A DNA stretch of 56,940 nt from Candidatus Cloacimonadota bacterium (GCA_004375965.1 SOIS01000152.1:1-56940), one strand, 5' to 3'. Counted from the stretch's first letter, positions 1-28,405 are shown. Made by a program: numbers and translations. The notes: generated from the letters alone by a model not told the origin.

Positions 1-32
1 ATAAGACATCCTTCTCTTTATAGATGTACTGT

Positions 33-428
33 TTATGGGATTAAAAGTTTCTGGCGAATCTCCTCAGGAAAGGGGACAATCTTACCTTCCCTATCGATGA
101 ACGCATGTTTTGTCATTCCCTCTGCAAGAATTTTGTCCTCTCCATTTCTAATAAAGTAATGAAACTTCATAGATGCTTTGCCAATGGATGTTACTTCTGT
201 TTCGATTCTTAACAAGTCATCATACTGCGCTGGTTTCTTATATTTTGCCCAGACCTCAAGAACAGGTAAGAGAAATCCCTCCTCTTCTATCTCCTTATAG
301 CCTTTGCCTCTTTTTCTTATATACTCTGTTCTTCCTATCTCAAAGTACTCCAGATATTTTGCATAATAGACATATCCCATATTATCTGTTTCCGCATATC
401 TGACCCTGACTTCTATAGTATCACCCAT
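33..428 (-). CDS. acyl-CoA thioesterase, 4HBT/YbgC-like hotdog fold
   Basis: 131-aa ORF. The N-terminus VRVRYAETDNMGYVYYAKYLEYFEIGRTEY matches the YbgC/4HBT thioesterase pattern. It starts 3 nt after the stop of the radical SAM gene. Confidence 0.8.
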   Translation of the reverse strand: MGDTIEVRVRYAETDNMGYVYYAKYLEYFEIGRTEYIRKRGKGYKEIEEEGFLLPVLEVWAKYKKPAQYDDLLRIETEVTSIGKASMKFHYFIRNGEDKILAEGMTKHAFIDREGKIVPFPEEIRQKLLIP

Positions 429-431
429 AAG

Positions 432-1766
432 CTATCCTTTCGAACAGAAAATAGCCTTATCCTTTGCCTTGTTGTAGAGTGGGCATCCATTACCACAAAG
501 ATTTAGATCCGGGCAAACCTTGCATTTTTCTTCTGCATATTCCCTGTTTCTTAAATATTGTGCAACATCGGAGTTCCAGATCTTCTCCCAGAAATCATTC
601 AAGATATTTCCCATGGTCTCAAAATAGCTCTGGCATGGAATGACATCTCCATTTGGCTCTATAGCAATGTTATATTTTGCAGCAGAGCACTGTTTCAAAC
701 CTACACCCGCTACACAGGGGTCAAAAACACAGTAGTGTGTTGGCGTGTACCATATGAAATCCAATTTATGTTCCTCTGCTTTTTCTTTTATTCTCCTGAC
801 ATATTTACCTATCTTCTCTTCTTCAATACCTGTTCCAACCGCGCATCCATTTCCTGAATAGATGAGGCTATTGTATGCAAACTTCTCAATTCCTATATGC
901 TTAAGAAATGCGATATGCTCTTCTATCTCATTACAATTATCCGTTGTGAGTGTTGTATTTGTGAGGACATAAAGAGGAGAATTGAGACTGTTTTTTATCC
1001 CTTCCAGTGTTTCTTTCCATCCATCTGCTTTAACCATCTTGTTATGGGTCTTTTCTCTATGTGATTCAATTGTAATCTGAATATGGTCAAGTCCAGCACT
1101 TACAAGTTCACTTACCAGTTCTTGAGTGAGTAGTCTTCCATTGGTGATTACTCCTGTAACGAGTCCAATCTCCTCTGCATACGAAACGAGTTCTGGTAGG
1201 TCTTTCCTCAAGGTTGGTTCTCCTCCTGTAAATGTAATGTGTGGAATACCAATGTCCCAGAGTCTTCTTATTACATTTTTCCAACTCTCTTTTTCCATTT
1301 CCGGAAAAGGTTTTTGCCTTCCTACATAACAGTGTTCACAGTTATTATTACATCGGTATGTTAGAACAATATCCGACCTGTAAGGTACAGAGATGGGTTT
1401 TGTGAATGCATCAATTCTATCCATTCCAAGGAAGAGTTCAGGTACAATTCTATCCGATGTCGCAATTTCGAAAATCGTATTTTTTAGTTTCATATAATCA
1501 TATTCTGCTTTCCTTCTCTTAACCCTGTATTTTGAACAGATTTCTTCTACAACCTCTCTATCTTCCTTTTCATCTATAATATACTTTGCAAACTCTGTTG
1601 CCGTTCTATTCAAATGTAATACCCTTGATGCGTTTATTACAAGTAATCCTCTTCCATCCTCGTCCACCCTGAGATGTATCCGATAACCCTGATATCTCCC
1701 ACTCTTACCTCTCTTATGATACAATCCCTTCCGAATCGGTTTTGCTGCTTTCTTAAAAAATCCCAT
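432..1766 (-). CDS. radical SAM/SPASM-domain enzyme with N-terminal PqqD-like (RRE-like) region; putative peptide/protein-modifying maturase
   Basis: 444-aa ORF with a CX3CX2C motif in VLTYRCNNNCEHCYVG and a GGEPTL motif. C-terminal Cys-rich SPASM-type block: CVAGVGLKQC...GDVIPC...CKVCPDLNLCGNGCP. The first ~100 aa (LLVINASRVLHLNRTATEFAKYII...VVEEICSKYRV) resemble PqqD/RiPP-recognition elements. Confidence 0.85.
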   Translation of the reverse strand: MGFFKKAAKPIRKGLYHKRGKSGRYQGYRIHLRVDEDGRGLLVINASRVLHLNRTATEFAKYIIDEKEDREVVEEICSKYRVKRRKAEYDYMKLKNTIFEIATSDRIVPELFLGMDRIDAFTKPISVPYRSDIVLTYRCNNNCEHCYVGRQKPFPEMEKESWKNVIRRLWDIGIPHITFTGGEPTLRKDLPELVSYAEEIGLVTGVITNGRLLTQELVSELVSAGLDHIQITIESHREKTHNKMVKADGWKETLEGIKNSLNSPLYVLTNTTLTTDNCNEIEEHIAFLKHIGIEKFAYNSLIYSGNGCAVGTGIEEEKIGKYVRRIKEKAEEHKLDFIWYTPTHYCVFDPCVAGVGLKQCSAAKYNIAIEPNGDVIPCQSYFETMGNILNDFWEKIWNSDVAQYLRNREYAEEKCKVCPDLNLCGNGCPLYNKAKDKAIFCSKG

Positions 1767-1824
1767 AGCCTATTTTATTCGGTTTATTCTCCGTGTCATT
1801 ACGAGCTCCAAAGTCCCTTCTATT

Positions 1825-1871
1825 AAATCCCCCTCAATCCCCCTTTTTCAAAGGGGGAAACAGGGGGATTT
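1825..1871 (-). terminator. GC-rich nested stem-loop between the Cys-Ala-tail gene and the radical SAM gene (possible partial terminator/attenuator)
   Basis: Outer stem aaatccccc (1825-1833) pairs with gggggattt (1863-1871). Inner stem tccccctt (1838-1845) pairs with aaggggga (1851-1858) around a 5-nt loop. It lies 4 nt downstream of the stop at 1875-1877. There is no long U-tract afterwards. Confidence 0.45.
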
Positions 1872-1874
1872 TGG

Positions 1875-3527
1875 CTACCTTCCTCCTCCAGCACAGGCAC
1901 AGGCACAGCCAGCACAGGCGCAAGCGCAGGCACAACCACCACCACTTGATGACCAGCCTCCTGAACGTGAACTAACCGGGACGGGATTTGTAACCTTTGT
2001 AACAGCACTCTGAAAACCTGTTATGTTACTTACTATTCTATTGGAAAAACTTTCTATCCCGGTTACTATAGAGTTTGCAAAATGGGAACCTGGAAGTTGT
2101 GGCATTGATAGACCTGGTACTTTAATACCAGGGGTGGGAGAGATGGCAGCGGTCGGTCTTGCAAATCCGGGATGATAATATCCCCACCAGAGAGGTGCTA
2201 TTATGGTGGTATCTCTGAACGAGGTATTCATTTTTTCTTCATAATCCTTATCCATCAAGAGCCATTCAAGGTTTTTATCAAATGCCTTGGATAATAACTC
2301 TGGGGTATTTGCTTCCTTCATTTCTGTCCAAGCTCTGTTAAGGATTCCTCTATAATATTCCCTTGTTTTCTTTCTTGAGAACCCTTTTGTCTTCTTATTT
2401 ACTGACTTTATTAAATTTATGAATGTTGTCCTCAAAATCCTCTGTTTGATTATACCATCTTTACCTATTGTTTTTAGGAAATCTTTCTCATAATCGTGGA
2501 GCTTTTGCTTTTTTTCTTTCTCTTCTACTATTTCGAGAAGAAGTGGTTCCTTTGTCTTCACCTTTATAACTCTCTTTTTGATTAATCCGAAGAGTATCAA
2601 TGTTGCTACCTTATTGAGAGGGAGTTCTAAAAGGGTTGCTGACTCTACTGCGGTAAGTCCTCTTTTTATTCCCACACCTTCAATTGAAAGGGTTGGAGGA
2701 AGATATCCCATTTTTCTTTTCGAAGAATTGATAGCACCAATGACGGCAATAAAGATAAAAAAGCCAATGATAATACAGGGACAAGAACTTCCTATAAGAC
2801 CGAAGATGGCAGAAAAGAAAGAACCAATGACTTTCCCTAAAGAAAATTTCCTTGGCGGTTTTGTTACAATTGCTTCATCAGGAATATATTGTTTAGGAAA
2901 GGAAGCACCAAATATATACTGTTCGGATGGAGATGCATAGAGAATAGAAAACTTGTACCACACACGACCAGAAGAATCGACAGCTGCTTCCGTAAACTTA
3001 ACTGCGTGGTATTTCTGTTCCTCAGGCTTTACACCAGGGGGAAAAATAAAGTAACAGACAAGGTCAGTTGTTCCATGGGTAAATTGGCTTCCAAACCAGG
3101 TGGGTGAAAAGACTACGGAAGCGTATGTTTCATCCTCTGTGTCCGGAAATATCATATACTTTGTGTTGATTGAGAACAGTAGTGTTCCTGTCTCTCCAGG
3201 AGAAATCTCATGTGTACCAAGATGGACCTCAACACCTGGATGAACATATTTAGAAGGTTGTATTTTATTCAGTTTAATACCATCTATCTCTGCAAAGGCC
3301 GATTTTAGATCATACCACTCATTTGGCATTCCTATATCAACAGTATCTATGGAATGTGCGTATTCATCACAGGTAAATTGAATCTCATAACTTATTGTGC
3401 AGGTTCCATCACTATTGATATAGAGTGCGGAATAGTTTTTATCTACTGTAAAACTATAATCCTGACAGAAGATGCTTGCTGCGGTGAAGAAAAGAAAGAA
3501 AAGGAGTAGCATTAGTCTTTTTACCAT
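1875..3527 (-). CDS. DUF2207-like membrane protein with C-terminal Gly/Ser-rich segment and (Cys-Ala)n tail
   Basis: 550-aa ORF. Signal peptide MVKRLMLLLFFLFFTAASIFC, N-terminal ectodomain, and hydrophobic block VIGSFFSAIFGLIGSSCPCIIIGFFIFIAVIGAI. The C-terminus is ...SGGWSSSGGGCACACACAGCACACAGGGR. Its start overlaps the upstream stop (ATGGTAA). The DUF2207 assignment rests on architecture only. Confidence 0.8.
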   Translation of the reverse strand: MVKRLMLLLFFLFFTAASIFCQDYSFTVDKNYSALYINSDGTCTISYEIQFTCDEYAHSIDTVDIGMPNEWYDLKSAFAEIDGIKLNKIQPSKYVHPGVEVHLGTHEISPGETGTLLFSINTKYMIFPDTEDETYASVVFSPTWFGSQFTHGTTDLVCYFIFPPGVKPEEQKYHAVKFTEAAVDSSGRVWYKFSILYASPSEQYIFGASFPKQYIPDEAIVTKPPRKFSLGKVIGSFFSAIFGLIGSSCPCIIIGFFIFIAVIGAINSSKRKMGYLPPTLSIEGVGIKRGLTAVESATLLELPLNKVATLILFGLIKKRVIKVKTKEPLLLEIVEEKEKKQKLHDYEKDFLKTIGKDGIIKQRILRTTFINLIKSVNKKTKGFSRKKTREYYRGILNRAWTEMKEANTPELLSKAFDKNLEWLLMDKDYEEKMNTSFRDTTIIAPLWWGYYHPGFARPTAAISPTPGIKVPGLSMPQLPGSHFANSIVTGIESFSNRIVSNITGFQSAVTKVTNPVPVSSRSGGWSSSGGGCACACACAGCACACAGGGR

Positions 3528-3949
3528 TTGGGGGCCTCCTCTATTTCATAAACAGAACCACAATATTGGCAGGAAGCAATAATTGCTCCTTCCTTTAGTG
3601 TTATACTATTCTTATCAATATGAGCACCACATTTCTGACATTTCAATGTCTCCATTTTAACATCGCCTGAAAGGTCAATTTTCTGGGTAATCTCTATCTT
3701 TTGTTCCTTTGGATGGAGCCTTCTGTAAATGAAAACGGTAATACCAATTGTTATAGCTATAAAGACAAGACCGATGACAATAAGAATGATTCCAGTTGAA
3801 AGTCGTGCACCACTATCAACACCGGGGGCACCTGCAGACCAGATAAACAATACACCGAAAAAGAGAAAGCTAAGTGAGAAAAACCCACCGAGAAAAAGAA
3901 TTGCTAATTGGATACAACCAAGCCCCTTTTTTTCTTTATTATTCGTCAT
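3521..3949 (-). CDS. small membrane protein with C-terminal zinc-ribbon
   Basis: 142-aa ORF with two or three hydrophobic helices, then CQKCGAHIDKNSITLKEGAIIASCQYCG (CxxC...CxxC). RBS gaggaaagga lies upstream. It is translationally coupled to the next gene. Confidence 0.7.
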   Translation of the reverse strand: MTNNKEKKGLGCIQLAILFLGGFFSLSFLFFGVLFIWSAGAPGVDSGARLSTGIILIVIGLVFIAITIGITVFIYRRLHPKEQKIEITQKIDLSGDVKMETLKCQKCGAHIDKNSITLKEGAIIASCQYCGSVYEIEEAPKW

Positions 3950-4422
3950 TTTCCTTTCCTCATTTTAACACAAAGTCATTGAGTAATTAAGTAATTAGGT
4001 TATTCCAGAGCTTCCACTATCTGGCGTCTCTTCACTATAATTTATTTCCCATCCGCTATTTTGCTTTTTACTTTACACTTGTAATTTCTTCCTTCTCCTT
4101 ACTCCCTGCTCCCCTCTTTTACCCTGCTAATTTATGGCTTCTATGAAGTTCCTTATGGGAAGGTTTTCCTACACTCTTTTTTTTACTGAAGATCGAGAAT
4201 ATGAAACTAAAAATTGGGAGTGTTATGACAAATGAGAAGAAAATATTCTTTATAACATCTCTCCTATTCAATTTCTTTATTTTTTTCAACATTTTCTCCT
4301 TATTTTTTATTCTTTACTACCTGCTACTTACGCTTTACGCTTTTCTTCCCCTGCTCGTAGGCTAAAGCCTGCGACTACTTTCCCTCCCTACTCCTTACTG
4401 TTTACTCCATACTATCATTTCT

Positions 4423-5319
4423 TTAGAGGTAACCGATGCTTCTGAGTATTGTTGCATTTTGCCTCCATTTTTTTCTTGTCTTCACGAAAAGTTCAAGGAA
4501 AACAGGTCTGTTAAGGAAGGGTTCGATATTTTTCCTTGCAGCTATTCCAAGATTCTTTATTGCTTCCCCCTTTTTACCTATTATGATTTTCTTTTGACTA
4601 TCTCTTTCAACTAAAATTACTACCTTTATGTAATCCTTTTTCCTTTCATTGGCTTCACGAAACTCTTCTATATATACTGCTGTGCAGTATGGAATCTCTT
4701 CACCATACTGGAGAAATATCTGTTCTTTTATTATTTCAGCAACAAAAAATCTTTCTGGTTGTGAAGAGATTGTATCCCTTGGGAAAAGAGGAGGGCCTGG
4801 AGGAAGATATTCTTTTAAGGTTTTAAGGATGTCATCCGTATTTATACCTTTTAAAGCAGAGATTGGTATGATTTCCTTAAAGAGAAGCGATTCATTTGCC
4901 TCGTCTATTAAGGGTAAAAGTGAATTCTTGTTTACTAAGTCAATCTTATTTATTATGAGAAAAACAGGTTTTTTTATTTTTTTCATTGTTTCAAGTATAT
5001 AGAAATCCAATTCTTTCTGCTTTATATCAATCATATAGAGGATAATCTCTGCTTCTCCTATTGTTTGCATTGCAATTCTCACCATGATTTTCTGGAGTTC
5101 ATAGTTTGGTTCAAAGATTCCTGGGGTATCAAGAAAGATAATCTGGGAATTGGAATCGTTGTAAATTGCTATAACCTTTTTTCTTGTTGTTTGTGGTTTA
5201 TGCGTAACAGCAGAGATTTTTGTTGCAAGAAGCGTATTAAGAAGTGTTGATTTACCCACATTGGGTTTTCCAATAATAGCTGCATATCCACATCTAAAAC
5301 CATTATCCTTAGTATCCAT
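4423..5319 (-). CDS. era: GTPase Era
   Basis: 298 aa. G1 motif GKPNVGKSTLLN, DTPG, NKID, and a C-terminal KH-type region. Confidence 0.95.
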   Translation of the reverse strand: MDTKDNGFRCGYAAIIGKPNVGKSTLLNTLLATKISAVTHKPQTTRKKVIAIYNDSNSQIIFLDTPGIFEPNYELQKIMVRIAMQTIGEAEIILYMIDIKQKELDFYILETMKKIKKPVFLIINKIDLVNKNSLLPLIDEANESLLFKEIIPISALKGINTDDILKTLKEYLPPGPPLFPRDTISSQPERFFVAEIIKEQIFLQYGEEIPYCTAVYIEEFREANERKKDYIKVVILVERDSQKKIIIGKKGEAIKNLGIAARKNIEPFLNRPVFLELFVKTRKKWRQNATILRSIGYL

Positions 5320-6447: not shown

Positions 6448-6663
6448 TTATTTCTTTTCTTTTGCTTCTTTAAGAGCTTCCATTAAACATTTCTGGAGAT
6501 ATGGACCAGGTTTATATTTGAATTCTGTATTAAGTCTTTCAAGCGCTTCAATTGCTTCGTTTGAAATTATGATAGAATACTCGCAATGACGTTTGTTCCT
6601 TGAATATGAATTAAAAGGTGGTTCATATTTCAAAATATGAAATTTGCTTTTTTTTGATTTCAT
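6448..6663 (-). CDS. small hypothetical protein, possibly ribbon-helix-helix-like
   Basis: 71-aa ORF overlapping the 3' end of the upstream ATPase gene by 41 nt. The pattern YSIIISNEAIEALERL...PGPYLQKCLMEALKEA could be strand-helix-helix. There is no clear SD. Confidence 0.35.
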   Translation of the reverse strand: MKSKKSKFHILKYEPPFNSYSRNKRHCEYSIIISNEAIEALERLNTEFKYKPGPYLQKCLMEALKEAKEKK

Positions 6664-8929
6664 CTTTAAGGCAATCTTTTATCTCGTCCTTTGCCGTGAA
6701 GTACAGAAATTGCCACCCTGTTTTGCTGAGTTCTTGCAAAATAAAAAGTTGACTTTTTAATCTGTCAATATCTGATTTCACAAATGGGTCGTCCATTATA
6801 AAGAATCCCTTTTCGCCCTTCAGGATTTTTTCTCCGAGAGCGAGCCGAATAGAAAGATACAACTGGTCGTAGGCACCACTAGAGAGTTTTTCTGCGCTCA
6901 AGAGTTCACCGTTTTCTGATAAAACCTCCACTCTCCTATTCTCGGTATTATATCCAACATGCTTATACATTCCTTCGGTTATCTTCATAAAATGTGCTGA
7001 AACTGGGCTATTCTTTCCGAAGAGGCTGGTGACCTTTTCCGCTTCTTCTTTCTCTATCTCCTCAAAAATTTCCATAACATTCATGACGGTTTCCCTTTTC
7101 CGTTTGTTTTCTTCGATAAAGGAATTAAGCCTTTCTTTTATTGCATTCAGGTCAACAGTCGTTTTGCAATGCAAATAATCCTCTTCAGATGGAATTATAT
7201 TACTCGTTCTTTTTTCAACTTCCTTTAATTCATCCATAAAGTTGCTCATTCTTTTTTTAATTTCTTTTTCCTCTTCGATGAGAGAGTTCTTTTCGTTCTT
7301 CAAACGAGAAATAGTTTTTTCATCATAATTTATGTCTGTAGCTTTGTCCTTATATACCTCATATTCATCAATCCTCGCATTCCAGTATTGCATTCTCTCT
7401 TCCTCAGTTTTTCTATCAATTCCAAAATAACTTTTCAATATTCCTATCTCTCTATCCCTTACCTTTTCCTGTTCGCTTTTTCTTTGGAGTTTTTCGTTGT
7501 ATTCTTCCTTTGTTTCTACTAATGATTTTCTTTTTATCTTCTCTATACTCTTCTCACCTTTGTTGATTTTACTATGCAAGTCTGGAATCTCCTCTTTAAT
7601 CTTTTTAATCTCCCTTTCCACTATCTCTAAATCGTTTTTAATACTATTACGCTCATTTTCCATTTTTGAGAACTCTTCCTGAAATCTGCTGATATTGAAG
7701 ACTATATCATCGATAGTTTTGCTTGAAAGCCCCAATTTTGCAGACATTAATTTTATTTTTTCAAGCGTTCCTGCAAGCCCTGCTTTTTTCCTCAAGAAGA
7801 ATAAGAGTACAATAAGTAAAGCTATTGCAATTGTTCCAAAGATTGCTATTGAAGACCCAAGAAGAGAAGAATGACTCAGGATATATCCAATAATAGAGAT
7901 ACCGCACAGGAACCCAAATAGTATGTCTAAAATTGTTAAAGTTTTAAGAATTCCCTTTCCTTTCGCAATCTCCCGACTTGCTTTTTCATAATTCTTTATT
8001 TCAGGATTTATGTCTTCATCCAGTCTTTTCTTTCTATCTATGTAGACAGGAAAATCTCGTTCTTTCTTTCCAAGTTCTTTCTTCTTCTCCTTAAACTCAA
8101 CCTCTTTATTGACCAGTTCATTTTCGAATTTGCATTTCTCTTCTATATATTTTTTAATGTCCCGTTCGGTGTCCCTCCAAAGTTCTTCCTCCTCATCATT
8201 GTAAATTTCTAAGTTTTTGATTTCCCTCCCTGCTGTCTTCAGTGAATTCAATGCAGTATTACATTTCTCGTATGTTTCTCTTTGCCGTGCATTTTCGTAA
8301 TCATTAAGTTTCCCATCAATCGTCTCAATACTCCTTTTCTTATTGTATGATTCCTCTTCTAAACTTTCAAATCCTTCCTTTTCAATCTCTTTCTTTAGCC
8401 TTTCAATCTTTTCTATCAGTTTTTCAGCATTTATCAATTTTGTTTTTAATTTCTCATCCTTTTTGTCCCGAAAATCCCCCTCCTTTGGTGTTAATTTACC
8501 GATATCCAGAAGATGGTTTTGGATACGTTTAATCTCATCTGTTCTAAGTCCTGTTAATCTGTTCTGAACATTTCTATAGAAAACGTTCTCTTTATCTATT
8601 GAGAGGTCGCTGCTCCTTATTATAAAAATATCCCTGTATTCCCTTACACTTAATCCTGTATTCTCTGTTAGCTCGCCCTTTTCAGGGAATTTAATCGTTT
8701 TTCCATCTTCCATCTCCATGATAAGATAACCTTCAGGTGTTTCGTCTACCCTGTCAATCTTATCAAAAATCTTTTTCACTCTTTTGAAAAGGAAACGAAC
8801 AATGCTGTCTATCAAGAGGGTTTTCCCCTCTTCGTTTCTTCCAAAGAAGAGGTTGAAATCTTTTAAATAGAAGCGTCCAAGGTCAACAAGTGGTCCATAT
8901 CTTGTGACTATAAATTCCTTGATTCTCAA
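6623..8929 (-). CDS. SMC/SbcC-like AAA ATPase with long coiled coil and central transmembrane hairpin (YhaN-like)
   Basis: 768 aa. Walker A GRNEEGKTLLIDS, ABC-signature-like LSSGAYDQ, Walker B FFIMDDPF. Central TM pair ILFGFLCGISIIGYIL...IAIFGTIAIALLIVLLFFL sits within E/K-rich coiled coil. Confidence 0.8.
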   Translation of the reverse strand: MRIKEFIVTRYGPLVDLGRFYLKDFNLFFGRNEEGKTLLIDSIVRFLFKRVKKIFDKIDRVDETPEGYLIMEMEDGKTIKFPEKGELTENTGLSVREYRDIFIIRSSDLSIDKENVFYRNVQNRLTGLRTDEIKRIQNHLLDIGKLTPKEGDFRDKKDEKLKTKLINAEKLIEKIERLKKEIEKEGFESLEEESYNKKRSIETIDGKLNDYENARQRETYEKCNTALNSLKTAGREIKNLEIYNDEEEELWRDTERDIKKYIEEKCKFENELVNKEVEFKEKKKELGKKERDFPVYIDRKKRLDEDINPEIKNYEKASREIAKGKGILKTLTILDILFGFLCGISIIGYILSHSSLLGSSIAIFGTIAIALLIVLLFFLRKKAGLAGTLEKIKLMSAKLGLSSKTIDDIVFNISRFQEEFSKMENERNSIKNDLEIVEREIKKIKEEIPDLHSKINKGEKSIEKIKRKSLVETKEEYNEKLQRKSEQEKVRDREIGILKSYFGIDRKTEEERMQYWNARIDEYEVYKDKATDINYDEKTISRLKNEKNSLIEEEKEIKKRMSNFMDELKEVEKRTSNIIPSEEDYLHCKTTVDLNAIKERLNSFIEENKRKRETVMNVMEIFEEIEKEEAEKVTSLFGKNSPVSAHFMKITEGMYKHVGYNTENRRVEVLSENGELLSAEKLSSGAYDQLYLSIRLALGEKILKGEKGFFIMDDPFVKSDIDRLKSQLFILQELSKTGWQFLYFTAKDEIKDCLKDEIKKKQISYFEI

Positions 8930-9984
8930 GACATCTCCTCCATCATTGCTCTAATTGCTATATTTCGCATCTCTTTTTGCATCGTACCGTCATAATCTTT
9001 TCCATTAAGTTTTTTCAGGAATTCTTTGAAGAGATCGTCCTCAAGAATAGTTTGGATATCCCTGAACTCTAATACAGGTTCTCCTCCAGATCTATCAATA
9101 CAGATTTCTTTAATTTTCTCGATTAACGTTGTTTCATTCAATCCGATACTTCTGGCGTTGTAATATCCTTTAACCTTTAGTAAAATCTTTGCATTCTTTG
9201 GTAAAGTTTTAAGTTCTTCTTTTAATTTTTCAATCGGTTTCTCATCTTTGAAGGGGTCGAGTTCAATTTCCACATCTTCAAAATAGGGTGTATCAAGATG
9301 ATATTCACTTGGAGGGTGGTCAACCTCGAAGATATTTATCATCCTTCTTCCTGTTTCCCTTTTCGTGATGGAGATGGGAGAACCAGGGTAAACGAAATAA
9401 CAGCCGTTCTTGAGTTCACGCACATCAAAGTTGGTGTGGAAATGGCCTGCTAGTATATAATCTATGTTTAAATCCTCGAAATATTTTAGCCTGACAGGCA
9501 TATATCGTTTGTCACCCTCTTCGCCGAAGTCAGTTCTCGAATAAAAGGTATCAAGGAGTTCGCCGTGAAAAATGAGTATATTCTTTCCATCTTTTCTAAG
9601 TTTCGTTTTTAAGGAATTGATCTTTTCTAAAATATCCTCGCCTCCTATTTCCTCAAAGGGAAGACCTATTATTCTTATTGTCTCAATATCACATGGTTCT
9701 TGTCTTAAGATTTTTACATCGTTCCCAAAGTTGAGACCGTGTTTATAAGCATCCTTATCATGATTTCCCGGTAGTAGATAAATCTTGAAAACTAAATTTG
9801 AAAATAAACCTCGTATTTTCCCCCGCAGGTGTTCAGCACTTACCCCTTTGTCAAAAAGGTCTCCTGCAATGATGAAAATATCTACTCTTTCCTTTTTCCC
9901 TATATCTATCAATGACTTGAGGGCTTTCCACCGTTCATCTTCATATTCCCTTAAATGTATATCACCTGTATGAAGTATCTTCAT
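8926..9984 (-). CDS. metallophosphoesterase, SbcD/YhaO-like DNA exonuclease subunit
   Basis: 352 aa. Motifs HTGDIHL, IIAGDLFD, GNHD and GHFH. A 4-nt overlap joins it to the downstream ATPase gene. Confidence 0.85.
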   Translation of the reverse strand: MKILHTGDIHLREYEDERWKALKSLIDIGKKERVDIFIIAGDLFDKGVSAEHLRGKIRGLFSNLVFKIYLLPGNHDKDAYKHGLNFGNDVKILRQEPCDIETIRIIGLPFEEIGGEDILEKINSLKTKLRKDGKNILIFHGELLDTFYSRTDFGEEGDKRYMPVRLKYFEDLNIDYILAGHFHTNFDVRELKNGCYFVYPGSPISITKRETGRRMINIFEVDHPPSEYHLDTPYFEDVEIELDPFKDEKPIEKLKEELKTLPKNAKILLKVKGYYNARSIGLNETTLIEKIKEICIDRSGGEPVLEFRDIQTILEDDLFKEFLKKLNGKDYDGTMQKEMRNIAIRAMMEEMS

Positions 9985-14407: not shown

Positions 14408-14416
14408 GATAATTTT

Positions 14417-15160
14417 ATGGTGAAGAAAATATATAAAGATATTGCAACCTATTATGATCGGTTAATGGAGGGCATTAACTATGAAGGGTGGATAGAATAC
14501 ATAAAAAACATATGTGTCCTTAATCAATTGAATCCAAAAACTGTCCTTGACCTGGGATGTGGAACAGGGACTCCTACTCTGTACCTCTTTGAAGAGGGCT
14601 ATAGAGTAATTGGTGTTGACGGGTCCATTGAGATGCTAAAGGTTGCAAAGAAGAAACTGAGTCCATTTAATCCAGTCTTAATCCTGAGTAAATTTGAAAA
14701 TTTCACAATTAAGAAAAAGGTCGACCTTTTGATTTCGCTTTTTGATAGTCTGAACAATATCCTTATTGAAGATGAACTTCTTCGAACATTTATCTGTGCA
14801 GAGAATTGTTTAAGAAAAGGAGGACTTTTCGTTTTTGATTTGAATACCATTTACGGACTTTCACTCATGAACAGTTCCTCAACATTTACAAAAGAGAGCA
14901 GAGGTGTCTACAGTATCTGGAAAAGTAAATTTGATCGAAAGAGATTACAAACAACACTTTCTATTACACTTTTCGTATCTGAAAATGGGAATTATCGAAG
15001 AATAGAGGAAACTCATATGGAAAAGGGATATTCCTTTTATACACTTAAGAGACTCTTGAGAAAGAGTGGGTTTACGAAAATTACCTTCTATGAACATCTC
15101 ACGTTTAGAAGACCACGTTTAAAAACAAAAAGGGTAATGGTTGTAGCAAAGAAGGACTAA
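14417..15160 (+). CDS. class I SAM-dependent methyltransferase
   Basis: 247 aa. SAM motif I VLDLGCGTG. Substrate unknown. Confidence 0.8.
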   Translation: MVKKIYKDIATYYDRLMEGINYEGWIEYIKNICVLNQLNPKTVLDLGCGTGTPTLYLFEEGYRVIGVDGSIEMLKVAKKKLSPFNPVLILSKFENFTIKKKVDLLISLFDSLNNILIEDELLRTFICAENCLRKGGLFVFDLNTIYGLSLMNSSSTFTKESRGVYSIWKSKFDRKRLQTTLSITLFVSENGNYRRIEETHMEKGYSFYTLKRLLRKSGFTKITFYEHLTFRRPRLKTKRVMVVAKKD

Positions 15161-28328: not shown

Positions 28329-28405
28329 TGGTAGCGGGGGAAGGATTTGAACCTTCGTCCTCTGGGTTATGAGCCCAACGAGCTACCAGACTGCTCCACC
28401 CCGCG
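28329..28405 (-). tRNA. initiator tRNA-Met (anticodon CAT), CCA encoded
   Basis: 77-nt cloverleaf: CGCGGGG-TG-GAGC-AGTCTGGTA-GCTC-G-TTGGG-CTCATAA-CCCAG-AGGAC-GAAGG-TTCAAAT-CCTTC-CCCCGCT-A-CCA. The C1/U72 mismatch and three G-C pairs closing the anticodon stem are initiator hallmarks. Confidence 0.95.

Follow-up and report, generated by a model that had tools for sequence, protein, structure and literature searches.

A 56,940-nucleotide stretch of DNA from a Candidatus Cloacimonadota bacterium (GCA_004375965.1 SOIS01000152.1:1-56940, hereafter the window) encodes a 550-aa membrane protein, MEM, that ends in an alternating Cys-Ala tail and, next to it, a radical SAM enzyme, rSAM1, which carries a SPASM region and a PqqD-like RRE, the recognition element of peptides that are ribosomally made and then modified post-translationally (RiPPs). 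Our analysis indicates that rSAM1 probably modifies the tail of MEM in place, docking via its RRE. This reading is based on a two-way linkage of the two genes in two domains of life, on the maturase-type architecture of the enzyme, on the lack of an alternative substrate and on the invariance of a tail that is disordered in the structural model. A protein-tail modification system, rather than a classical leader-peptide RiPP, had been proposed in a sequence-only reading of this DNA made by a model, and the proposal is consistent with all the available evidence, short of demonstration. The four co-directional open reading frames (ORFs) described in that reading, encoding ZNR, MEM, rSAM1 and a thioesterase, were recovered on the minus strand at the positions it had given. 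The core genes and their parts are as follows.

3521-3949, minus strand: ZNR, Zn-ribbon membrane protein, 142 aa (ORF call; no curated family)
1875-3527, minus strand: MEM, tailed membrane protein, 550 aa, type I (ORF call, homologs, AlphaFold model)
1977-2102, minus strand: conserved pre-tail segment of MEM, aa 476-517, LPGxxFA...V.G...F(T/Q)..VT.VTNPxP (alignments)
1935-1976, minus strand: Ser/Gly-rich linker of MEM, aa 518-531 (length and sequence vary, both flanks conserved)
1878-1934, minus strand: C-terminal tail of MEM, CACACACAGCACACAGGGR, aa 532-550, 19 residues, proposed substrate or core (homologs, codon analysis)
432-1766, minus strand: rSAM1, RRE-radical SAM-SPASM enzyme, 444 aa, proposed tail maturase (Pfam, PDB profiles, model)
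1458-1727, minus strand: RRE (PqqD-like) domain of rSAM1, aa 14-103 (profiles, model)
1329-1352, minus strand: radical SAM [4Fe-4S] motif CNNNCEHC (in RCNNNCEHCY), C139, C143 and C146, aa 139-146 (sequence)
444-731, minus strand: SPASM region, C346, C360, C378, C415-x2-C418-x5-C424-x3-C428 and C441 (Pfam, invariant Cys)

Linkage of the two genes and invariance of the tail

In the forward direction, tail patterns were used to scan GTDB genomes, each species being represented by a single genome; this yielded at least 77 loci, whose six-frame ORFs were searched with phmmer. These loci include Chloroflexota, Acidobacteriota, Aminicenantes, Hydrogenedentes, Planctomycetota, Polyangiaceae and Sabulitectum, as well as archaeal loci from Methanomassiliicoccales, Thermoplasmatota, Nanoarchaeia, Hodarchaeota and Heimdallarchaeota, the last with the complete Heimdallarchaeum aukensis chromosome. 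An rSAM1 ortholog (at least 270 bits) was found in 42 of the 48 tail-seeded loci with room on both sides, 40 of these having it within 3.5 kb on the same strand, and frameshift-split rSAM copies at L021 and L033 bring the total to 44/48. In the reverse scan, metagenomes were seeded only by the enzyme motifs FTGGEPT and WYTPTxYC, which gave 80 loci; of the 47 that offered 2 kb or more of upstream sequence, 46 encode the tailed protein. Linked genes were seen in Chloroflexota, Cloacimonadota, Planctomycetota, Acidobacteriota, Methanomassiliicoccales, Heimdallarchaeota and further groups; their adjacency recurs in bacteria and archaea, in over 100 independent loci, and Ornatilinea apprima P3M-1 is a cultured carrier of the module, at locus L026 on NZ_LGCL01000045.1. 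The co-occurrence of rSAM orthologs with Cys-tailed membrane proteins, on which the sequence-only reading had made its proposal depend, was thus observed in both directions and in bacteria as well as archaea.

A homology search with the 550-aa protein gave more than 3,600 relatives. As this first search favours shared words, it was repeated as an exhaustive profile search, which revealed no fewer than 1,228 clusters (50% identity), among which 469 have E ≤ 1e-30; they are distributed over many bacterial phyla and over archaea, Asgard lineages such as Heimdallarchaeota included. The top 120 homologs belong to Cloacimonadota, Edwardsbacteria and Chloroflexota, and the tail is identical in nearly all of them despite an overall identity that falls to about 43%, a degree of conservation well above what chance would give. 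A (C-x)n tail closes 129 of the 146 best-ranking representatives and a short CACACAGGGR one more, the remaining 16 being truncated fragments that stop inside conserved internal regions; essentially every complete member of the family is tailed, in the form (Cys-Ala)n...CACACAGGGR. The MEM of the window ends in SGGWSSSGGGCACACACAGCACACAGGGR, with 7 Cys in 15 residues, and the Cys-dense tail noted earlier is therefore present where it had been described. The variant CACACACAGCACACAGGGR is found in Chloroflexota and Cloacimonadota, CACACAGCACACACAGGGR in Planctomycetota and deltaproteobacteria, and CACACACACACAGGGR in Methanomassiliicoccales and Heimdallarchaeota; a longer variant is of the CVCAC..CACACACVSCACACAGGG(VG/AR) type, and the terminal CACACA(G/S)GG is common to all of them.

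At the DNA level, 88 tails with the same 19 residues occur in 86 versions, whose variable sites number 1, 0 and 19 at the first, second and third codon positions, the single first-position site being that of the Arg codons CGN/AGR. Because nearly all of the DNA variation lies at third codon positions, it is the tail peptide that is under strong purifying selection, and not a DNA repeat that is conserved. An explanation as an artefact, in which a (TGYGCN)n microsatellite happens to be translated into the Cys-Ala run and stands next to the rSAM gene by coincidence, draws on the repeat-like look of the coding DNA; it is refuted by differences confined to synonymous sites together with the two-way linkage across more than 100 loci, and its probability can be regarded as negligible.

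Upstream of the tail, the pre-tail segment holds invariant or nearly invariant residues at P476, P479, G480, A484, F505, T510, T513, N514, P515 and P517, and the succession of pre-tail segment, linker and tail is present even in short gene fragments. With a conserved pre-tail segment, a variable linker and a tail disordered in the MEM model, the C-terminus has a leader-core-like layout, in which the pre-tail segment is a candidate leader-like recognition sequence for the RRE. Inspection of the intergenic DNA at window positions 1-4500 revealed no Cys-rich ORF, and a tail-only protein search, for which the tail query carried a Ser/Gly pad, returned 16 short proteins that are all C-terminal fragments of the MEM family, none being a stand-alone precursor. 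A hidden small precursor was rejected on these grounds, and the earlier observation that the locus has no small precursor ORF holds.

Architecture of the enzyme, the membrane protein and the module

Pfam profiles identified Radical_SAM (4.5e-29) and SPASM (4.1e-11) in rSAM1, which confirms the architecture initially read from CNNNCEHC and the Cys block. The cluster motif is invariant in the alignments, CxxxCxxC being found in 145 of 148 rSAM1-class ORFs, and the pattern CX2CX5CX3C, with three or four further Cys upstream, is present in 117/117 rSAM1 orthologs, an arrangement that fits two auxiliary clusters. Profile searches of the PDB matched SkfB (8e-29) and PqqE (2e-28), with anSME and the epimerase YydG also among the matches. 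With the AlphaFold model (pTM 0.79), Foldseek retrieved SkfB (6e-16), SuiB over its full length including the RRE (436-458 columns, TM-score about 0.6), and then PqqE and anSME.

Regarding the N-terminus, the PqqD profile is sub-threshold on the rSAM1 of the window (E 0.011) and matches 37 of 38 rSAM1 orthologs at E ≤ 0.01, with a best value of 1.9e-8. Positions 34-104 of the rSAM1 profile match the lasso-peptide RRE TfuB1 (3.9e-4), the model places strands (29-52) and then three helices (54-103) ahead of the barrel, and the region harbors the invariant residues R29, H31, L32, N45, A46, H51, N53 and A56. The RRE assignment is thus solid at the family level: the PqqD-like N-terminal fold, the second point on which the sequence-only reading had let its proposal stand or fall, is seen in the orthologs, in the TfuB1 match, in the modelled fold and in the SuiB alignment. 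rSAM1 is a true RRE-radical SAM-SPASM protein with the architecture of a peptide maturase. None of the NCBIfam equivalogs (PqqE, SkfB, AlbA, NirJ2, AhbD, MftC, PapB, GeoRSP, ACGX, ScmE) reached its cutoff with the window enzyme or with archaeal orthologs, the best score being that of NirJ2 with 126 bits against a cutoff of 500.

MEM matched no Pfam or NCBIfam model (NCBIfam threshold E ≤ 0.1). The label 'DUF2207-like' previously given to this protein could not be maintained, since the window MEM has no match to DUF2207 (PF09972 / PF20990) and the profiles remained sub-threshold over 60 family members, with DUF2207_C matching 9/60 (best E 0.0044) and the N-domain 1/60 (E 0.074). TIGR04222 matched neither the window MEM nor the family members tested, and by HMM the protein is a member of neither family. 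At most there is a remote architectural resemblance to DUF2207 and TIGR04222 membrane proteins in the signal peptide, the beta-sandwich ectodomain, the transmembrane (TM) helix and the low-complexity C-terminal tail, the tails of those proteins being Gly- or Gly/Cys-rich. We know of no radical SAM linkage for either family.

In the AlphaFold model of MEM (pLDDT 80.7), a signal peptide (aa 1-22, a signal or anchor helix) precedes an extracytoplasmic beta-sandwich (aa 26-211) that is confidently modelled. It is followed by a hydrophobic stretch at aa 233-270 with one TM helix inside, a winged-helix domain and helical bundle (aa 290-440), two amphipathic helices (aa 480-513) and the disordered tail. 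Foldseek gave domain-level matches only, with a TM-score of about 0.25 for the whole chain, the beta-sandwich matching ribophorin-I/Ost1 and the N-domain of M1 aminopeptidase. Over the family, a single internal segment behaves as a membrane span, the K+R value being 1.9 ahead of it and 3.6 behind; in about half of the members a further hydrophobic window shows up, which corresponds to the ILLELPLNKVATMILFGLI helix pair of the winged-helix domain. The best reading of this single span and of the K+R enrichment behind it is an N-out/C-in topology, which would place the tail in the cytoplasm, beside the Fe-S enzyme.

Several further features of MEM were observed. A Cys cluster lies at the outer edge of the span (window 2718-2831, aa 233-270), as SSCPC in the window and CCCNP or CNSPLCC in relatives; its Cys positions vary between relatives yet recur. 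At L119:700-4102, two tandem full-length tailed paralogs precede one rSAM1-rSAM2-methyltransferase set. A compact variant at L076:1406-2419, in an Oscillospiraceae metagenome-assembled genome, consists of signal peptide, beta-sandwich, TM helix and a Gly linker joined directly to CACACACACACAGGGR, after which come 31 additional residues. The winged-helix/helical domain and the TNPxP segment are both missing, and a divergent radical SAM gene adjoins it; the variant could represent a minimal version of the protein, or its stop codon could have been misassembled. Association of the module with mobile elements was discarded, as tblastn of the tailed protein against plasmid and phage collections gave no match.

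Clustering of 4,722 flanking ORFs revealed the widely conserved components, namely the radical SAM family (156 loci), the tailed protein, ZNR (103 loci) and a methyltransferase (79 loci), with no conserved protease or exporter among them. The core module is composed of ZNR, MEM and rSAM1, and the window contains this minimal form. ZNR, encoded by the first gene of the core module, has a pair of hydrophobic helices at the N-terminus and the zinc ribbon CxxCG...CxYCG...EEAPKW at the C-terminus. A ZNR homolog lies upstream of MEM in 59 of the 77 tail-seeded loci listed, and upstream in most enzyme-seeded loci with room. Across 100 sequences its C-terminus is conserved as C..CG...CPYCG..Y...EEPKW, and the module thus has a second conserved C-terminal motif in ...CPYCG..Y...EEPKW.

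The radical SAM family splits cleanly into rSAM1 and a paralog of about 385 aa, rSAM2, examples of which are the following.

L010:13127-14281: rSAM2
L023:7563-8726: rSAM2
68 other loci: rSAM2

The motif CxxxCxxC is found in 0/70 rSAM2 sequences and the SPASM cysteines are lost as well, the barrel being kept. The PqqD domain of rSAM2 scores 28.4 bits versus a Pfam cutoff of 23.4, and inspection of two rSAM2 sequences showed the motif HLR..DG.G.L..NA...LHLN to be common to rSAM1 and rSAM2, as expected if both bind the same partner sequence. Retention of the RRE without the cluster Cys is what would be expected of a substrate-binding helper, and rSAM2 is probably a dedicated pseudo-enzyme acting as a substrate chaperone. 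The methyltransferase is a class I enzyme of about 250 aa, encoded downstream on the same strand in 84/91 cases. Chloroflexota mostly combine rSAM1, rSAM2 and the methyltransferase, archaea with an uninterrupted (CA)n tail have rSAM1 and the methyltransferase, and the clade with CV/VS-type tails and Cloacimonadota have rSAM1 only. Hidden Markov models (HMMs) built from other loci detected neither rSAM2 nor the methyltransferase in the window, an ORF at 14408-15157 being rejected as module methyltransferase with a score of only 20 bits, a generic methyltransferase match. None of ZNR, MEM, rSAM1, rSAM2 and the methyltransferase reaches any NCBIfam cutoff.

Proposed mechanism and competing explanations

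Based on these data, the tail of MEM is inferred to be the substrate of rSAM1. The RRE would dock on the conserved pre-tail segment, acting as an internal 'leader', with the tail as 'core', and 5'-deoxyadenosyl radical chemistry together with the SPASM auxiliary clusters would act on the Cys-Ala repeat. The likeliest product would be Cys thioether cross-links to neighbouring Ala or Gly carbons, of the sactionine or ranthionine type, although Cys-derived thioethers are a leading guess that we hold only tentatively. Because no protease, exporter or free precursor is conserved, the product would stay on the membrane protein with neither cleavage nor export, closer to a protein-derived prosthetic structure than to an antibiotic RiPP. 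In other lineages, the cluster-less, RRE-bearing paralog would probably hold the substrate and the class I methyltransferase would add a further step. The module might conceivably build such a prosthetic structure on the cytoplasmic end of the membrane protein, for example a thioether-laddered or metal-cluster-bearing (Cys-Ala)n hairpin.

Several observations weigh against modification of the tail by rSAM1. At three loci (L035, L050 and L074) an intact tail stands without any rSAM gene inside 10 kb, one enzyme locus (L094) has no tailed protein within 6 kb upstream, and the compact variant L076 does not possess the proposed docking segment. In the window, a strong hairpin separates the MEM and rSAM1 genes, so that their co-transcription there is not assured. 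In curated HMMs, the tetrapyrrole-modifying NirJ2 and AhbD are as similar to the enzyme as the peptide maturases, the similarity being weak and far below cutoff in either case. The thioether assignment is drawn entirely by analogy with known Cys-modifying SPASM enzymes, and CxC repeats are classic soft-metal ligands, so that the tail could function unmodified.

A different chemistry on the same tail, such as conversion of Cys to formylglycine or dehydroalanine, epimerisation of Ala to D-Ala, or C- or S-methylation with the methyltransferase, is somewhat unlikely in our estimation. It would agree with the presence of anSME, which forms formylglycine from Cys in full-length proteins, among the structural neighbours, of the radical SAM epimerase YydG among the PDB matches, and of a class I methyltransferase in 79 loci. 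However, CACACACAGCACACAGGGR does not contain the sulfatase motif C/S-x-P/A-x-R, anSME is not known to have an RRE, and the methyltransferase, missing from the window and from the entire CV/VS-type clade, is not core. Less likely again is that MEM is a membrane sensor or scaffold whose unmodified tail binds metal or an Fe-S cluster in the manner of metallothionein or the CopY CxC motif, the enzyme then acting on a small molecule, cofactor or lipid with MEM as docking platform or as electron or metal donor. NirJ2 and AhbD, which act on tetrapyrroles, are indeed among the best curated-HMM matches of the enzyme, the partner ZNR is a Zn-ribbon protein, some tails have no adjacent enzyme, and alternating CxC is a known ligand pattern of thiolate clusters. 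The CopY motif CxCxxxxCxC is the stated subject of PMC12648655. In the present family, however, the Ala residues and the final GGGR vary no more than the Cys do, in bacteria and archaea alike, which disfavours a purely metal-binding tail. Spacer residues of metal-binding tails usually tolerate substitution. In addition, the peptide-binding RRE is strongly conserved both in rSAM1 and in its dead paralog rSAM2, an element that SPASM enzymes acting on small molecules are not known to carry, and a near 1:1 adjacency is typical of enzyme-substrate pairs.

A third possibility, which we consider improbable, is that the modified tail gives rise to a small redox cofactor or peptide, similar to pyrroloquinoline quinone (PQQ) or mycofactocin, which a protease encoded elsewhere would cut from the membrane protein. 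The extreme invariance of a short C-terminal core is a hallmark of the cofactor precursors PqqA and MftA, and the nearest relatives of the enzyme include PqqE and MftC. Nevertheless, the surroundings of the module show no conserved peptidase or exporter, the tail is carried by a large, well-conserved, multi-domain membrane protein that is no disposable leader, and the tail-only search found no short stand-alone precursor. In-place modification of the tail by rSAM1 therefore remains our preferred reading.

The closest known systems are those of the sactipeptide and ranthipeptide maturases (SkfB, AlbA, CteB/SCIFF, PapB), which share the combination of RRE, radical SAM and SPASM and have a Cys-rich substrate encoded by a neighbouring gene, as the candidate substrate is here; rSAM1 matches SkfB best in both sequence and structure, and AlbA aligns from residue 44. 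Their precursors are of 30-60 aa, whereas the candidate substrate here forms the C-terminal end of a membrane protein of 550 aa; the proposed core, hypervariable in RiPPs, is invariant here across bacteria and archaea; and RiPP leader proteases and exporters have no conserved counterpart in the module. SuiB, which forms the Lys-Trp cross-link of streptide, aligns structurally with rSAM1 over its full length, N-terminal RRE included, but at 15% identity, and its product is a C-C cross-link on a short peptide, whereas the tail contains no Lys or Trp. The related enzymes PqqE and MftC, in the PqqE/PqqD/PqqA and MftC/MftB/MftA systems, likewise work with a PqqD-type RRE and a short invariant C-terminal core; they differ by their small free precursors, by releasing peptidases and by cores without a Cys-Ala repeat, and neither a small free precursor nor a conserved processing peptidase was found here, all tails found being fused to MEM.

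Modification of a protein that is retained has known examples. The SPASM radical SAM enzyme QhpD installs Cys thioethers in QhpC, the gamma subunit of quinohemoprotein amine dehydrogenase, and the modified polypeptide remains a functional protein subunit; QhpC differs in that it is small and periplasmic, is made with a leader and contains Cys-Asp/Glu links. In the same way, anSME, another SPASM enzyme, acts on Cys of full-length proteins, but at a single site, within a motif that the tail does not have. Finally, TIGR04347, which its NCBIfam name describes as a 'pseudo-SAM/SPASM' protein of Halobacteria, resembles rSAM2 as a radical SAM/SPASM homolog without cluster Cys; it is the second-best NCBIfam match of rSAM1 and also appears among the rSAM2 matches, but its scores of 40-125 bits against a cutoff of 525 indicate a separate family.

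The enzyme class is already known; the substrate architecture, its cross-domain invariance and the gene set are not represented in Pfam, NCBIfam release 20 or the PDB, and full-text literature searches under several framings found no description of this system. Radical SAM/SPASM maturases are known for short, hypervariable precursor peptides that are then cleaved and exported, while the apparent substrate here is the invariant tail of a large membrane protein without a conserved protease or exporter. Conservation of this extent suggests that the module has a basic role in anaerobes, for example in redox, metal handling or signalling at the membrane, over chemical warfare, and the findings point to a so far undescribed system for the chemical modification of a protein at its own tail. 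If the prosthetic-structure reading were true, it would represent an ancient cofactor-like modification in anaerobes with a dedicated radical SAM maturase, extending from Chloroflexota and Cloacimonadota to Methanomassiliicoccales and Heimdallarchaeota. The analysis defines five protein families without a curated model and supplies a sharply bounded candidate substrate of 19 residues.

Neighbouring genes and the intergenic hairpin

Two further elements flank or separate the core genes in the window.

33-428, minus strand: thioesterase, YbgC/4HBT acyl-CoA, 131 aa (Pfam and NCBIfam matches)
1825-1871 (about), minus strand: nested C5/G5 hairpin, directly after the MEM stop, within the 108-nt spacer before rSAM1 (folding)

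The sequence-only reading had spoken of an operon and listed four co-directional genes. The gene order and the junctions are real, with a 7-nt ATGGTAA start/stop overlap of ZNR and MEM at 3521-3527 and a 3-nt gap (TAG-ctt-ATG) between rSAM1 and the thioesterase gene, as had been reported. The thioesterase (Pfam 4HBT_2, 7.9e-19), however, does not belong to the conserved unit: homologs occur in 0 of the 77 tail-seeded loci listed, and synteny is limited to a Cloacimonadota relative (L158), where the order is Era, a 68-aa ORF, ZNR, MEM, spacer, rSAM and thioesterase. It was rejected as a system component and is a lineage-specific Cloacimonadota neighbour outside the conserved module.

The GC-rich hairpin mentioned in the sequence-only reading is real, with a folding energy of -40.9 kcal/mol (z = -3.6). 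It occurs once in the window, which excludes a repeated REP-like element, and no intrinsic-terminator call supports a canonical terminator. A promoter-like site at 1799-1772 was discarded, such sites being at chance level (11 found versus 11.1 expected). An Rfam scan of the window returned a tRNA at 28332-28405 alone, with no match in the module region. Stable hairpins lie 3' of the MEM stop in both Cloacimonadota loci (window 1825-1871 and L158:7653-7705), with unrelated sequences; in most other phyla the MEM and rSAM genes abut or overlap. The hairpin is possibly an attenuator or an mRNA stabiliser that sets the substrate:enzyme ratio, a form of tuning by such elements that is common after RiPP precursor genes.

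Between era and the ZNR gene, at window 4119-4292 on the minus strand, a 57-aa ORF starts with MLKKIKKLNRRDVIKNIFF and contains an RR motif followed by one hydrophobic helix. It shares 50% identity (E 1e-20) with the 68-aa gene called at the same position in the Cloacimonadota relative (L158:5189-5395), and its product may be a lineage-specific small membrane partner. Further along the minus strand, at window 6623-9984, two large overlapping ORFs, one of 768 aa that is coiled-coil/ATPase-like and one of 352 aa, lie downstream of a Thi4-like gene.

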